DNA of 12,334 nt, from contig BEHE01000028.1 in assembly GCA_002898395.1 (NCBI GenBank), positions 1-12,334 on the forward strand. Reading direction: 5' to 3'. Shown in pieces: positions 6,505 through 12,334 of this stretch. A program made the translations under genes and the position numbers. The notes beneath the pieces were generated by a model. The model was not told where the DNA came from, did not search any database, and saw only the letters and a program-made list of their open reading frames with translations. The DNA is from Candidatus Calditenuaceae archaeon HR02 (GTDB taxonomy: Archaea > Thermoproteota > Nitrososphaeria_A > Caldarchaeales > Calditenuaceae). Each line of letters opens with the position of its first letter. The stretch's first letter is position 1.

Positions 6505-6571
6505 GCCAGCCACCAAACCTTCGAAAAGATATTTAACATAAACTCGTATTGAGCAAAATTTTTGCAAAAGA

Positions 6572-6645
6572 TGCCGGCGGTGGGACTCGAACCCACGGCA
6601 ACGGGATTATGAGTCCCGCGCTCTACCAGCCTGAGCTACGCCGGC
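6572..6645 (-). tRNA. tRNA with CAT anticodon (elongator Met, or Ile2 if C34 is modified)
   Basis: The reverse complement folds as GCCGGCG TA GCTC AGGCTGGTA GAGC G CGGGA CTCATAA TCCCG TTGCC GTGGG TTCGAGT CCCAC CGCCGGC A. It is 74 nt, all stems are perfect, no CCA is encoded and there is no intron. Confidence 0.9.
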
Positions 6646-6850
6646 ACTCTGGCCAGCCAAACCCAACCCGCCGGCAATACAAGCAAGGAATTAGCCTCTA
6701 TTAATCCTTGATGAGCCGCGATATGCCCAAACAGGATTTGGGGGGCGTATTGGATTTAAGGGAGGACACCTGGCCTAGGCCTTCCCATGGATGAGTAACA
6801 AGCAGACTAGTTCAATCCTATTCCCAAAAAATACTTTATATCTATGCACA

Positions 6851-7970: not shown

Positions 7971-8054
7971 AAATCACCCACCAGTACTTGGCAAATCTAG
8001 GTATTTATTCGACACATATAAGTTTTAAAAGTTTGACATGTTTAAAAATCAATT

Positions 8055-8483
8055 TGACTTTTCATAGATTCCAGTTGGGGGATATCTCGCTATGCTGGCG
8101 CGGCCGAAGCCTGATGGTGTAGGTGTCCGGCGTCTCTTTGGCTTTCCTGACAACCCTCACGGTGGAGTGGCTCTCATACAGGCGGATGTGGATAGAGTCT
8201 AAGAGAGATGCATACATGACGTATGTCTATCCCAAGACTATAAGAAGTTCTTAAAGAAGATCGGAACATCGATACTCAGGAAGCAGCATCTCATAGAATT
8301 ATCAACAAAAGCAATATGGTATTACATGGATGAGATAGGAGAGAGGAAGGACTGGTGGAAGATTTGTGAGATGCTACGGATAGCTATCGGCAGGAGAATG
8401 AAGCGCAAAGGAAAACCCAACCCCTCCCCCTTTTCTTCCTCCTTGTTACTTGCCTACCACAGTATTTGATGTATTCATAAAGA
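8055..8483 (+). repeat. Repeat copy A: diverged ~0.43 kb segment homologous to 11977-12334 (inverted); decayed coding remnant abutting the 3' end of tRNA-Thr
   Basis: Collinear blocks were matched by hand. 8074-8090 matches rc 12301-12315. 8329-8363 matches rc 12092-12126 (30/35 identical). 8394-8434 matches rc ~12020-12063. Only a broken reading frame is present (open 8203-8466, stop codon 8467-8469, no start before 8326). Confidence 0.5.
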
Positions 8484-8557
8484 AGCCTCGGGCGGGATTT
8501 GAACCCGCGACCCCCGGCTTACCAAGCCGGTGCTCCACCCGGCTGAGCTACCGAGGC
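8484..8557 (-). tRNA. tRNA-Thr(GGT)
   Basis: The reverse complement folds as GCCTCGG TA GCTC AGCCGGGTG GAGC A CCGGC TTGGTAA GCCGG GGGTC GCGGG TTCAAAT CCCGC CCGAGGC T. It is 74 nt with perfect stems, U73, no CCA and no intron. Confidence 0.9.
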
Positions 8558-8789
8558 GCACACCTATCGTTTGAAGACCGTGAATTTAGCTATTAAGGAT
8601 TTTATAGCGAAATTTTATGGATAAGAATGTTCGAGGAAGCATGGCTGGTGGGAGAGTATATGGCACTGGCATTTTGCCATGGTCGAAAGACTGGTGCTTT
8701 ACTAAGTTATTATCAGCGGTTTGCGAATCTGTTCAGGAGGGGTGGACACACTTATGAGCGGCTTGGGTTTAACTGAGTTAGTTGGAGCT

Positions 8790-8830
8790 GCGGCCGTGGT
8801 CTAGCCTGGACTAGGACGTGGGCTTTCCGA
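8790..8830 (+). tRNA. 5' piece (positions 1-38) of an interrupted/split tRNA-Gly(UCC) gene
   Basis: GCGGCCG TG GTCT AGCCTGGACTA GGAC G TGGGC TTTCCGA, after which the tRNA-like sequence ends in A/T-rich DNA. The partner piece is at 11943-11976. Confidence 0.8.
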
Positions 8831-8879
8831 GCGAATATAGATACAATCAAGTATAAGTTACTCGTAATACCTGTTGCAA

Positions 8880-8884
8880 TTTTT
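8880..8884 (+). terminator. T5 tract ~50 nt downstream of the tRNA-Gly 5' piece
   Basis: TTTTT could terminate a separately transcribed 5' half. The region is A/T-rich, so this may be chance. Confidence 0.25.
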
Positions 8885-8943
8885 AGAGAAATATAATAAG
8901 TTAAGTAATGAGAAAGTAAGAAAGTAATATCATTTGAAAACTT

Positions 8944-8953
8944 AAAATAAAAA
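8944..8953 (-). terminator. oligo-T terminator after the LAGLIDADG gene
   Basis: The minus strand reads CCCTTTTTATTTT starting ~10 nt after the TAA stop at 8963-8965. Confidence 0.4.
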
Positions 8954-8962
8954 GGGAGTGGG

Positions 8963-9814
8963 TTAGGTCGGGTTGTTTGTTATGGCTTGTAACAATTGCT
9001 GTAATCGTATCCTCTTCTTGTCTACTGTAAATCCAATTATCGCAGCGTATCTGCGAATATCTTCCTTGCGACAAATATGCAGTTCATATAATGCTTTCTT
9101 CGAAGTAATGTAACAATTTTCAGGCTCATAATAATGGCTTTTAAATCCGCCGTAGTAGATCCTTGAATATATGCCAAGCTGTTGTAAGAGATGTTTTATA
9201 TAGCGAAGTAGTTGAAGGTTTGTATTTGATATTTTTATTCTTTTCGTGCTAACTATCGGACCGCCTTCTGCGTCAGCGAATCCACGTATGAATGATTTTA
9301 CACATTCTTGGCAATGTTCTACGTATGGTATTATTGCTGAAATATCGTTGTGGTCTTTTACTCTCATACTAAGAAGGTAGAGTTCTCTACTGTATGCTCT
9401 TGCTAACCATGTTTCTTCAGACCTTATGTAATATGCTCTGTATGGTTTACTTCTCCCTAGAGCTACAGCAGCGGACCGAGCAAATTCTTCAGCAAATTCC
9501 TTATCCTTCACAGGTAAAAGGACCATGTACTTTTTCGCCTTTACTTCATAGTGTTTATATCCATCCCCTAAATATGCGCCAAGCGTGTATCCTGTCTCTG
9601 GACAATTTCTGAGTTTATTCAGTCTTTGATCAGATTTTGGTCTCCCTTTGCCATCATTCTTTGGTGTATGTATATGCCTTAGCCAGTAACTCAGCGTGGA
9701 CTTCGGGACATCTAAGCTATATTGTTGCTGGAGTATATTCCTTATTTCGTAATACGACGCCCCCTCTTTCCTTAATCTAAGTACTTCGTCATATATTTCT
9801 TCGTATTTTTTCAT
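8963..9814 (-). CDS. free-standing double-motif LAGLIDADG homing endonuclease with N-terminal helix-turn-helix domain
   Basis: Motif 1 is LGAYLGDGY. Motif 2 is IRGFADAEGG, ~99 aa later, giving D...E catalytic spacing as in single-chain enzymes such as I-DmoI. The N-terminal ~75 aa are HTH-like (GASYYEIRNILQQQYSLDVPKSTLSYWLRH). I place the start at ATG 9814 (MKKYEEIY) because GGGGAGGAGGA (SD-like) immediately precedes it. The ORF track extends to 9835. Confidence 0.85.
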   Translation of the reverse strand: MKKYEEIYDEVLRLRKEGASYYEIRNILQQQYSLDVPKSTLSYWLRHIHTPKNDGKGRPKSDQRLNKLRNCPETGYTLGAYLGDGYKHYEVKAKKYMVLLPVKDKEFAEEFARSAAVALGRSKPYRAYYIRSEETWLARAYSRELYLLSMRVKDHNDISAIIPYVEHCQECVKSFIRGFADAEGGPIVSTKRIKISNTNLQLLRYIKHLLQQLGIYSRIYYGGFKSHYYEPENCYITSKKALYELHICRKEDIRRYAAIIGFTVDKKRIRLQQLLQAITNNPT

Positions 9815-9929
9815 TCCTCCTCCCCTACAGTCCACTGTTACATTGAGTCTTTAGGAGTATAGCAGCTAAGAGGACCATGCATTTATTAGTCTTATTATAT
9901 TTATTATCCGAGATTTCACATATCTCTGT

Positions 9930-10862
9930 CTAGGCAGGGCCTTCATACGCCCCCATGGTAACGTGTTGGGGGAAGCGGCCGCTAGGCTGCGCGGCTCTGC
10001 CATGTAGAACTGTCATCAAAGTCGGAAACGCTAACTGTATTCGAAAGCACTCAGTAAAATTATCTGAAAACCAACTGGCCTCAGTGGAGTCGTTGATAGC
10101 AGTCTTTCCATCACTTGTTCCGAGTTCTCCTCCCGCGTCTTCTCCGGGACACCCTCTAGGCCTGCTCCGTTCACAGCGTGCTCCAAGCATATCTTCTAGC
10201 TCTTCACTATACGCTCCGGGAGCAGGATAGAGGTATCCGTTCACCAAAGACACGGAAGGATATCGGCCCTCATGTAGGAGATGCGTATGAGGCGCTGGCT
10301 TCGGGCCAGCGCAGCCATTATGGGAGCCTTTCACCCCAAGCTCCGGGCACCCTAAGGCTTACTAACCCTTCACCACCAACACACTCATACGCAGCGCCCC
10401 CATCGGGCCGGCCTCCCAGAGGCTCAGGCTAAAACTCCCAACGGCGAGAGCCGCCCAAGCGGAAGCCCAAGCCCAGAAGGCCCGACACAGAACCCGACCA
10501 CCCTCCGCCCGGACTCAAATATATTATCCGGGCGCCGCCAGCAAAGGTGGGAAATATATGATTCGCTCATCTTAATCAGTGCTGTCAACAGTGACCATAT
10601 CGGCCCTCCTGGAAGATGTGAGGGCCCTCAACATCTCCTCCCAGACGCCCAGCTCCTGCCAAAGCCTAAGCCTCCTCCAGGCCGTTTTGTAAGAACCGTA
10701 CTCAGCGGGCATGTCCATCCAGCGGCACCCAGTCGTCAGGACATAGAGTATGCCGTTCAGCACGCGCCTGTCATCAGCCCTAGGCCTACCACCCCTAGGC
10801 TTAGGAGGGAGAAGCGGCCTAATCAACTCCCACTCAAAGTCGCTAAGCTCCCTGAACTCCAA
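9930..10862 (-). pseudogene. decayed IS4/IS5-superfamily transposase (intact N-terminal DUF4096-like ORF 10572-10862; DDE part broken by stops and frameshifts)
   Basis: LSDFEWELIRPLLPPKPRGGRPRADDRRVLNGILYVLTTGCRWMDMPAEYGSYKTAWRRLRLWQELGVWE is the typical N-terminus of IS5/IS1031-like transposases. The ORF stops right at the first DDE aspartate region (VDSTD*). The downstream frames keep only faint transposase-like strings (e.g. GAYSEELEDML). G+C is much higher than in the flanking island DNA. Confidence 0.6.
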
Positions 10863-10887
10863 GCCGAAAACATATGACCTGAGAGAG

Positions 10888-10900
10888 CTTAAATAATTTT
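10888..10900 (+). promoter_or_regulatory. TATA-like box for the 10931 ORF
   Basis: CTTAAATAATTTT lies 31-43 nt upstream of the ATG at 10931. Confidence 0.35.
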
Positions 10901-10930
10901 GAGACGAGTTCTAAGATAAGAACTATCTGG

Positions 10931-11488
10931 ATGAATAGACCGCTCGCTTCCACTATTCTGTTGCTTATAGCAGGTGGCTTTTACATAATTGGTGGGTTCG
11001 TTGCAGCTAGCATAGTTGGGTGGCTTGGTGCTTTAACAGCCAGTCTAGGTGCTTCTGGAGTTGCACAGGAGGCGCAGGAGAGTGTTGTAATTGTCATATC
11101 TACTGGTTTTGTATCTGGAGGAGGTATTATTGTAGGTGCGCTCCTCGTTTGGACAGGAACTAGACGAAAGGTATTGATTGGTGGTATAATTGCACTAATC
11201 TTCAGCCTTATTGGTATAATAAACACTATTGGAGGTCTGATTGTAGGCTTAGTGTTAACTATAGTTGGAGCGGTCCTAGCATTCACATGGAAAGCTCATA
11301 ATGCTCATACAAGCTTAAGAACGAGCAACTATCATACATCCTCTAACTACATCAATACGCAGATAACAAAGAAGCTTAGAAACGTGCCAGATAGGTGCCC
11401 TAGATGTGGAGGATACAATATCGTAGGATACACGGGTATTTATGACTGCTTCGACTGCGGCTATAAGTTTGCTGAAGAACATGTCTAA
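10931..11488 (+). CDS. hypothetical Gly-rich 4-TM membrane protein with C-terminal zinc ribbon
   Basis: 185 aa with four hydrophobic Gly/Ile-rich helices, a polar linker, then CPRCGGYNIVGYTGIYDCFDCGYKF. I recognise no family. Confidence 0.55.
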   Translation: MNRPLASTILLLIAGGFYIIGGFVAASIVGWLGALTASLGASGVAQEAQESVVIVISTGFVSGGGIIVGALLVWTGTRRKVLIGGIIALIFSLIGIINTIGGLIVGLVLTIVGAVLAFTWKAHNAHTSLRTSNYHTSSNYINTQITKKLRNVPDRCPRCGGYNIVGYTGIYDCFDCGYKFAEEHV

Positions 11489-11796
11489 CGCTCTTGCCTC
11501 TCTAGTTCAGCAGCTAATAATGCTGCCTTCCATCGTGGTCGATTTTGCTAACGGATAATGTTTTCAGAAATGATGACTGAGTATCAATGAGAACCTTAAA
11601 AAAGATTATCTGAGATTCTTAGATATGGTCTTTGACAGTTAATGTACAATAAGGGCCTGTATTATTCTATTATTTCTATTCCCTCATCTTGGGCCTCATA
11701 GGGCCTGCTAGTTTAGGTAGTCCCATGAATATGCCAATAAACTATATGTAGTAGCATAAACTCTTCTAACTATGGACGCCTAACATTTATTATTAT

Positions 11797-11801
11797 AAAA
11801 A
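11797..11801 (-). terminator. oligo-T tract directly after the intact tRNA-Gly
   Basis: The minus strand reads TTTTTATAATAATAA immediately after the discriminator base. Confidence 0.4.
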
Positions 11802-11877
11802 TGCGGCCGGCGGGATTTGAACCCGCGATCGCTGGGTTGGAAACCCAGCGTCCTAGTCCAGGCTAGACGACGGCCGC
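11802..11877 (-). tRNA. tRNA-Gly(TCC), intact
   Basis: The reverse complement folds as GCGGCCG TC GTCT AGCCTGGACTA GGAC G CTGGG TTTCCAA CCCAG CGATC GCGGG TTCAAAT CCCGC CGGCCGC A. It is 76 nt with perfect stems and no intron. Confidence 0.92.
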
Positions 11878-11910: not shown

Positions 11911-11942
11911 GTTTCGCTCTATGATTATATGTAGTTATAGTG

Positions 11943-11976
11943 CCCAATACCCGGGTTCAAATCCCGGCGGCCGCAA
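11943..11976 (+). tRNA. 3' piece (positions 39-73) of the interrupted/split tRNA-Gly(UCC) gene
   Basis: GCCCA ATAC CCGGG TTCAAAT CCCGG CGGCCGC A. The anticodon-stem strand is complementary 5/5 to 8819-8823. The acceptor strand is complementary 7/7 to 8790-8796. It is followed by T-rich sequence (ATTTTAATAATTATGGCTTTTT). Confidence 0.8.
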
Positions 11977-12334
11977 TTTTAATAATTATGGCTTTTTCAA
12001 TGTGGTAAGTATGAGGGGATAAAGGGGGAGGGGGCGGGTTATCGTCTGCGCTTCAACATTCTCTTACCTACCCCATTTGTTGTTTTGGCTCATCTTCCAC
12101 CAATACTTCCCTTCTCCTATCTCGTCCACATAACGCCGTATCATCTTGTTGAGGGTTCGATACCCCCGCCGCTAGTAGTGGTGCATATAGTTAGGTGCCT
12201 TAAATACTCCCCAAAACACCAACAATACGTATACACAAAACAGGGCCAGATACAACACAAAGCAAAGAAAAAAACTCGTGAAGATAAATAAGCTATCCAG
12301 AGATATACCCCCGACGAGGGCTTAAAAGCCTCTA
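11977..12334 (-). repeat. Repeat copy B: inverted, diverged homologue of 8055-8483, abutting the 3' end of the tRNA-Gly 3' piece; runs off the window
   Basis: It shows the same collinear blocks as copy A. The minus-strand frame reads ...RRGYRTLNKMIRRYVDEIGEGKYWWKMSQ..., versus ...LSTKAIWYYMDEIGERKDWWKICEML... in copy A. Confidence 0.5.

Follow-up and report, generated by a model that had tools for sequence, protein, structure and literature searches.

Among the closest described systems to the one presented here is the 1,868-bp 'insertion sequence' that was found at the gene for tRNA-Thr(GGU) in Caldiarchaeum subterraneum (Sugahara et al. 2012; PMC3293823). It is made up of a 545-bp region, 'a', of which six copies are conserved at the nucleotide level, and an 813-bp open reading frame (ORF), 'b', which has seven diverged paralogues. 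The product of 'b' was called a putative DNA recombinase by SVMProt, and an origin from a pNOB8-type plasmid was proposed (Sugahara et al. 2012). Here, this element is compared with contig BEHE01000028.1 of Candidatus Calditenuaceae archaeon HR02, which was analysed over its entire length of 12,334 nt and is called the window below. Two mutually inverted segments, segA and segB, lie beside tRNA genes in this contig, the end of which falls inside the sequence flanking segB. We consider it likely that both stubs are relics of free-standing LAGLIDADG homing-endonuclease genes that colonise the 3' flanks of tRNA genes and are transcribed towards the tRNA; the family would probably be the 'b' ORF of the 'a+b insertion sequence'.

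Two other groups of endonucleases are relevant to the comparison. I-DmoI and I-Tsp061I, the best PDB matches of the family described here, share with it the fold, the double-motif core, the D/E catalytic residues and the thermophilic archaeal hosts. They are located within bulge-helix-bulge (BHB) introns of rRNA genes and measure about 190-200 aa, whereas the genes of the window family are free-standing, specify an extra N-terminal helix-turn-helix (HTH), to which one subfamily adds an extension of two helices at the C-terminus, and lie on the opposite strand beside a tRNA. Free-standing homing endonucleases have also been found in the tRNA regions of phages, an example being the GIY-YIG enzyme SegB of T4; their genes are intron-less and promote inheritance of the tRNA region. 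Like the window family, the SegB-type genes are intron-less homing genes lodged among tRNA genes, but they belong to another nuclease superfamily and to a bacterial virus, while the window family resides on an archaeal chromosome. Genes of the SegB type are not known to converge in any conserved manner on the 3' end of a single tRNA.

Homology between the inverted segments

Three tRNA genes were located by ARAGORN and Rfam, all of them on the minus strand: Met (6570-6646), Thr(GGU) (8484-8557) and Gly(UCC) (11802-11877). The two segments and their immediate surroundings comprise the following features.

8123..8251, plus strand: upstream frame of the segA LAGLIDADG pseudogene (…RRMWIESKRDAYMTYVYP…), matching positions 331-356 of the family hidden Markov model (HMM) at E 1.5e-6 and an A4-only HMM at E 2e-4
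8203..8466, plus strand: main open frame of segA, 88 codons (…DYKKFLKKIGTSILRKQHLIELSTKAIWYYMDEIGERKDWWKICEMLRIAIGRRMKRKGKPNPSPF…), family HMM E 4e-31
8484..8557, minus strand: intact tRNA-Thr(GGU), with its 3' end towards segA (ARAGORN, Rfam)
12000..12171, minus strand: segB, a more decayed remnant of the same family (BLASTN with segA, E 1e-18; family HMM, E 1.7e-3)
12164..12244, minus strand: upstream flank of segB, homologous to positions 33-112 of contig L033 (BLASTN, 81 % over 81 nt)

Comparison of positions 8000-8490 with the reverse complement of 11941-12334 by BLASTN gave one significant inverted alignment, that of 8293-8450 on the plus strand with the reverse complement of 12005-12161 (110/160 identities, 69 %, 6 gaps, E 1e-18). 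An independent repeat search returned two pairs of arms, I1 (8314-8363 and 12092-12141, 80 %) and I2 (8399-8449 and 12005-12055, 76 %). An earlier note on this DNA had described inverted homologous segments of approximately 0.4 kb. Their inverted homology holds, over a length of about 160 nt. The distal block that had been paired in that note (8074-8088 with 12301-12315) agrees at 11/12 positions, which at E 1.5 is not significant, and no homology between the proximal and the distal block could be detected with a local aligner. The peptides YMDEIGERKDWWK and YVDEIGEGKYWWK were found in the frames assigned to them. A once-coding stretch is present in both segments as had been suggested, although segB is not an open frame: one frameshift and an in-frame stop have to be accepted in it. 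The observation of inverted segments is, in short, confirmed in part.

A family of HTH-LAGLIDADG proteins

The nature of the shared peptide became apparent from a HMMER profile search of 1.84 billion representative proteins, which gave 16 matches. Most of these are themselves stubs of 47-93 aa; the four long ones, P0007 (349 aa), P0011 (410 aa), P0012 (290 aa) and P0017 (310 aa), match via their C-terminal 60-75 residues. The shared peptide constitutes the C-terminal 70-130 residues of proteins of 290-410 aa. A short peptide alignment (A1), when run against genome, viral and metagenome collections, yielded pattern matches and zero confirmed relatives; DNA pattern scans of viral contigs with the segA/segB core and tblastn against phage records gave nothing.

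The Pfam domain LAGLIDADG_3 was recognised in P0007, P0011, P0012, P0017, the L010 ORF, P0018 and P0020-22 at 33-63 bits, the cut-off being 22.5. The full-length relatives bear the motifs …LSDGY and …(G)FFDGDG and have kept the catalytic acidic residues, D in motif 1 and D or E in motif 2. In the PDB, the long proteins match by sequence two endonucleases of archaeal introns, I-Tsp061I and I-DmoI. The AlphaFold (AF2) model of P0007 (pLDDT 79.5) consists of an N-terminal three-helix HTH (residues 16-61), the LAGLIDADG core (78-254) and, at the C-terminus, two long helices (260-308). Foldseek placed I-DmoI chains at all of the top 34 positions (E 1e-9, TMt about 0.70), and the model has the pseudo-dimeric alpha-beta-beta-alpha-beta-beta-alpha fold. 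Judged by sequence and model, the family is one of free-standing HTH-LAGLIDADG (I-DmoI-like) genes of the homing-endonuclease type that specify a predicted single-chain, double-motif nuclease, and the two-helix basic extension seen at the C-terminus of the model is typical of the subfamily to which segA and segB belong.

The HMMs that were scored on the window had been built from members located elsewhere only. Since their matches place both segments at the C-terminus of a LAGLIDADG gene, segA and segB are neither integrase fragments nor N-termini. This disposes of the proposal in the earlier note that they are IntN fragments of an SSV-type integrase: the peptide is the C-terminus, not the N-terminus, of HTH-LAGLIDADG proteins, and no tyrosine-recombinase signal was found. 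What remains of that first interpretation, which is thus partly supported, is a coding relic of a tRNA-linked mobile gene: the gene is of a mobile-element type, and it was protein-coding, read towards the tRNA and antisense to it.

At least three stubs are present in HR02, and two stubs and one intact copy occur within the 12 kb studied here. The intact copy, an ORF of 873 bp (290 aa) at 8963-9835 on the minus strand, is a distant paralogue with an HTH and a double-motif LAGLIDADG domain (Pfam LAGLIDADG_3, E 4.9e-17, 62 bits; family HMM, E 1e-28). It carries …LGDGY and …FADAEG, the acidic residue being D for motif 1 and E for motif 2 (alignment A3), has about 29 % identity to P0011 of contig L002, and is devoid of the C-terminal extension.

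Stepwise decay of segA and segB

The main frame of segA spans the end of the LAGLIDADG_3 domain, the two-helix C-terminal extension and a basic tail; its equivalent in the P0007 model is the stretch of residues about 245-320. It contains no LAGLIDADG motif, and its sole plausible start is an internal ATG at 8326. The only relative obtained by a word-indexed search is P0001, a hypothetical protein of 67 aa from HR02, to which the frame is 70 % identical. A frameshift has occurred in segA, because the neighbouring frame at 8123-8251 also matches the family HMM; upstream of about 8165, no family match was detectable at segA. In segB, the frame 12171-12067 (…MIRRYVDEIGEGKYWWK…), which is the part matching the family HMM, is followed by a frameshift into 12074-12000, and the latter frame carries the in-frame stop. 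A T-arm-like sequence in segB, GGTTCGATACC (12154-12164), was considered as a tRNA relic and judged to be a by-product of G-I-E-P codons.

L033, a 662-nt ENA contig, is 78 % identical over 213 nt to segB plus its tRNA piece, 81 % to the upstream flank of segB and 72 % to segA. Between the two blocks that match segB, L033 retains about 310 nt that are deleted in the window. The retained stretch encodes LAGLIDADG motif 2 (…GFFDGGG…), and its frame 2-307 matches HMM positions 275-332 at E 1.3e-18. The protein P0008 has the same deletion junction as segB. The segB locus is, as these sequences indicate, an old copy that is progressively eroding, because L033 keeps motif 2 while segB and P0008 have the further 310-nt deletion in common. 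SegA is a 5'-truncated, frameshifted pseudogene and segB, likewise 5'-truncated, has decayed further; the two are the 3'-terminal quarter to third of two paralogous HTH-LAGLIDADG gene copies.

Convergent arrangement with tRNA genes

Several copies of the family, each reading towards the tRNA or tRNA part given, are arranged as follows.

segA: tRNA-Thr(GGU), stop codon 14 nt from the tRNA
segB: 3' piece of tRNA-Gly (plus strand, ending at 11975)
L010: tRNA-Arg(CCU), gap of 47 nt after the frameshift-corrected stop
L033: antisense 3' part of a tRNA, after which the contig ends
P0013 of HR02: ORF tail …SGISRRQDLNLRPSGFC, a read-through of an antisense T-arm
L036: tRNA-Leu(CAG), gap of 28 nt
L035: tRNA-Leu(CAG), syntenic with L036, gap of about 75 nt

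A convergent tRNA 3' end is found in 5-6 of about 10 independent loci, against an expectation of about 1.4 %, itself a rough estimate of the frequency of such neighbours (binomial p about 1e-8). The other copies are thus, where checked, tied to tRNA 3' ends and not scattered. The contig of L002 stops 61 nt past the stop codon of its family gene.

The tRNA part of L033 (613-662) has the trailer and the first 6 nt in common with the 3' piece of tRNA-Gly in the window. It is otherwise distinct, with the acceptor sequence CCGCCGC, a possible GCC anticodon and an unusual G at T-loop position 54, and 3/5 pairs of the anticodon stem are formed before the contig ends. It may belong to a different Gly isoacceptor or be another broken tRNA.

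About 45-55 nt separate the tRNA 3' end from the 3' end of the gene and from a pyrimidine-rich, terminator-like motif, CCCCTCCCCCTTTT (8421..8434, plus strand, in segA). This motif occurs in segA, segB, L010 and L033; in L002 and the intact ORF of the window it follows the stop codon. Homology between loci continues through CCCCTCCCCCTTTT and ends with …ACCACA, leaving 22-37 nt up to each tRNA that are a locus-specific, AT-rich host trailer. The earlier note had the segments abut the tRNA 3' ends. Both do lie just downstream of them and read towards the tRNA, while the homology between them stops 30-33 nt short of it. Since CCCCTCCCCCTTTT is found beyond the stop codon both in L002 and in the window's intact ORF, it must be a feature at the level of DNA or RNA; the simplest reading is a probable terminator for the endonuclease gene. 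A second candidate junction motif, GAGCGAAT, was rejected, as it does not rise above chance (15/200 shuffles).

One could suppose that the conserved 160 nt have been kept for a function of their own, either as a small C-terminal protein or as a cis element, such as a terminator or a 3'-processing signal for the tRNA or an antisense transcript. Many database ORFs of 55-93 aa span exactly this region with an open frame, and the pyrimidine motif is conserved even outside the ORF. Yet frameshifts or stops interrupt the region in segB, L033 and L010, and the open stubs are over-represented because protein databases take in open frames only, an ascertainment that favours them. The 22-37 nt next to the tRNA, where the terminator of the tRNA would be expected, are moreover not conserved between loci. 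A function of this kind is very improbable.

The junctions also bear on another proposal, in which a tyrosine integrase of the SSV or pNOB8 type would have moved larger elements that integrate at tRNAs; the stubs would be the ends of such elements and the LAGLIDADG gene would be cargo next to attL. This was the idea of the earlier note and also the model of Sugahara et al. The 3' ends of tRNAs are the classic att sites of archaea, and the window contains a fragment of an IS5-type transposase as well as a low-GC stretch between the tRNAs. Like IntN/IntC of the SSV type, the stubs are gene fragments in antisense orientation by a tRNA 3' end. Unlike these, they have no recombinase homology, are C-terminal, end both in frame and in homology short of the tRNA, and are not accompanied by a direct att repeat. 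An integrase domain was found in none of the window ORFs tested, the peptide has no Pfam match, and the profile search yielded solely LAGLIDADG proteins and stubs, of which the peptide is the C-terminus. No direct repeat of the 3' part of tRNA-Thr was found in the window, T-arm copies being confined to tRNA-Thr, tRNA-Gly and the Gly 3' piece. No gene spans an att site, because the frame stops before tRNA-Thr and the homology between loci ends in front of the tRNA rather than within it. The units in L035/L036 and L002, finally, are solitary inserts of 1-1.7 kb among host genes: in L035/L036 the gene alone lies between L-PSP and tRNA-Leu/COX2 in housekeeping surroundings, and the L002 unit of about 1.7 kb adjoins host genes. 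Integrase-driven elements are an unlikely source of the stubs.

A third explanation is that the family represents a domesticated host DNA-binding protein, a WhiA-like combination of HTH and LAGLIDADG with a tRNA-linked role such as the regulation of tRNA transcription, and that segA and segB are decayed duplicates of its gene. The N-terminal HTH and the helical, basic C-terminal extension would suit such a role, WhiA is among the structural neighbours detected by Foldseek, and L035 and L036 are intact orthologues at one conserved locus. Against this, both catalytic acidic residues have been retained (D in motif 1, D/E in motif 2), the family is multi-copy, patchy and often pseudogenised, its copies lie beside at least four different tRNA species, and its paralogues diverge fast (29 % identity). 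We regard domestication as improbable for the family.

More distant LAGLIDADG_3 relatives (24-27 % identity) were encountered on unrelated metagenome contigs: L015 (2824-3752), L020 (2221-2926), L026 (807-1469) and L004 (6001-6394). They are located 3-70 nt from tRNA genes, after tRNA-Cys or tRNA-Leu(UAA) or before tRNA-Ser, and on the same strand as the tRNA. There are hints here of tRNA neighbourhoods as a general habitat of free-standing LAGLIDADG genes.

The split tRNA-Gly(UCC) and the structured region 'a'

The tRNA piece next to segB is one half of a broken gene. Between segA and segB, the following features are found.

8790..8829, plus strand: 5' piece of tRNA-Gly(UCC), positions 1-37 (inverted repeat I3 with the intact tRNA-Gly, 90 %)
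8963..9835, minus strand: intact HTH-LAGLIDADG ORF described above
9931..10450, minus strand: 'a'-like region, G+C-rich and non-coding, directly upstream of the intact ORF; similar to L002 5187-5722 (plus strand), which lies upstream of P0011
11802..11877, minus strand: intact tRNA-Gly(UCC), within the 3.1-kb insert and 64 nt from the 3' piece (ARAGORN, Rfam)
11941..11975, plus strand: 3' piece of tRNA-Gly(UCC), positions 38-73, with the T-arm core at 11953-11966 and discriminator A at 11975; segB lies downstream

When joined, the two pieces form a 75-nt tRNA-Gly(tcc) according to ARAGORN. The 3.1 kb that interrupt the gene lie precisely between its positions 37 and 38, and the acceptor stems of the pieces match. 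The anticodon stem of the split copy is TGGGC/GCCCA as opposed to CTGGG/CCCAG in the intact gene. Besides the intact LAGLIDADG ORF and 'a', the insert contains a DUF4096 fragment of the IS5 type, a membrane protein with DUF6114 and, on the opposite strand, the intact tRNA-Gly(UCC), which is likely to be the functional replacement for the split copy. Cofolding of the flanks of the split tRNA-Gly did not produce a canonical 3-4-3 BHB; a 7-bp helix, GAGCGAA/UUCGCUC, was formed at 24 nt from the 3' junction. An inversion between two tRNA-Gly copies was discarded as the origin of the split on paper reasoning, as it would regenerate two whole chimeric tRNAs and not complementary pieces.

The 'a'-like region of the window is 74 % identical over 541 nt to that of L002 (Candidatus Pelearchaeum maunauluense), and 86 % in the first 200 nt, whereas the adjacent proteins from these two genera are only about 29 % identical. 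RNAalifold of the two 'a' copies gave 135 pairs, 11 of them compensatory and 0 broken. Many of the GC/GU exchanges work on the ORF strand only. The indels, of 8, 28, 2, 3 and 1 nt, do not come in multiples of three; that of 28 nt lengthens a hairpin. The minimum free energy has a z-score of -3.5. A structured RNA on the ORF strand is a lead that this comparison of two sequences suggests. Rfam returned no family for 8560-11800 at E<=1 or for L002. When all fetched loci were searched with the 5' 222 columns of 'a', by nhmmer and by covariance model R1, the two source copies alone were recovered, and DNA pattern scans of viral contigs with two 'a' stretches gave nothing.

Comparison with the 'a+b' element

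The element of C. subterraneum and the genes in the window come from the same phylum, are multi-copy and lie beside tRNA genes and tRNA fragments; the tRNA-Thr(GGU) at which the former was described is also the one next to segA. In the former, a block of about 545 bp lies upstream of an ORF of about 813 bp; in the window, the corresponding sizes are 541 nt, for the block conserved with L002, and 873 bp. The layout is the same, as the block at 9931-10450 lies directly upstream of the diverged 873-bp ORF and the tRNA-Gly pieces flank the insert. Likened by description, 9931-10450 is probably region 'a' of Sugahara et al. (2012), and 'b' probably belongs to the LAGLIDADG family because layout, sizes, phylum and tRNA species match. 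In the library that was searched, there was no paper that links LAGLIDADG genes to the 'a+b' element or to the disruption of archaeal tRNAs.

Proposed route of spread and decay

By analogy with intron-less homing, the predicted endonuclease would cut endonuclease-free alleles in or beside the 3' flank of a tRNA gene, and repair off an occupied allele would copy the gene in. The conserved tRNA would constitute a durable and widely available landing site that is itself not destroyed. After fixation, the gene would decay through frameshifts and deletions from its 5' side, with the tRNA-proximal 3' end persisting longest. We propose that the 3' stub survives because deletions into the tRNA would be lethal or counter-selected, and because the stub would keep the target site disrupted.

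Several points weigh against the stubs being relics of homing-endonuclease genes of the 'b' type. The nuclease activity and the position of the cleavage site near the tRNA are predictions, and homing by repair is put forward by analogy. The clone of Sugahara et al. (2012) has its ORF on the strand of the tRNA and upstream of it, whereas the stubs in the window are convergent with a tRNA, and the identity of 'b' is drawn from its description rather than from direct sequence comparison. What the intact copy in the window faces, at a distance of 133 nt, is the end at which the 5' piece of tRNA-Gly is broken off, and not a tRNA 3' end. No tRNA was found within 215-575 nt downstream of L031, L032 and L034. 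L035 and L036 look intact and vertically inherited (58 % identical), which fits a domesticated gene as well.

Other features of the contig

At the start of the contig, the ORF at 22-447 on the plus strand has a ubiquitin-family domain as its final part (Pfam PF00240, E 1e-7), which is preceded by an apparent E1/ThiF-type tail. It is reminiscent of the ubiquitin-like modifier system reported for Caldiarchaeum. Just upstream of 'a', a 96-aa ORF (10572-10862, minus strand) contains the N-terminal DUF4096 of an IS4/IS5-family transposase only (E 1.7e-29) and is a truncated IS remnant. A part of the window occurs in one other assembly only, a Logan contig of 1,128 nt (run DRR101364) with 99.4 % identity to 10639-11766.

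Implications

The origin of split, permuted and intron-laden archaeal tRNA genes is an old question, and the LAGLIDADG family may help to explain their breakage. To our knowledge, the tRNA-Thr of C. subterraneum is the only case studied at the population level, and an integrase-type plasmid was blamed there on indirect grounds. The LAGLIDADG family would provide a concrete candidate agent, which would break both DNA strands at tRNA loci and leave the break to be repaired. The 3' flanks of tRNAs would then be a landing site for free-standing archaeal LAGLIDADG genes, the published element would probably have to be re-annotated, and 'a' would be a conserved, RNA-like partner outside the assigned families.

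A wider and rather doubtful possibility is that stubs, intact ORF and 'a' belong to one kind of archaeal mobile element, made up of a structured RNA and a LAGLIDADG endonuclease that homes to tRNA genes, and that the cuts and insertions of this element directly cause the fragmentation of such genes. If this were true, 'a' would be a new class of endonuclease-associated RNA; it could be an intron-derived core, or mobility could depend on it in cis or in trans. The element would give rise to split and permuted tRNAs and to introns at new positions, and the cut at 37/38 of the tRNA-Gly(UCC) gene would show one of these events in progress.

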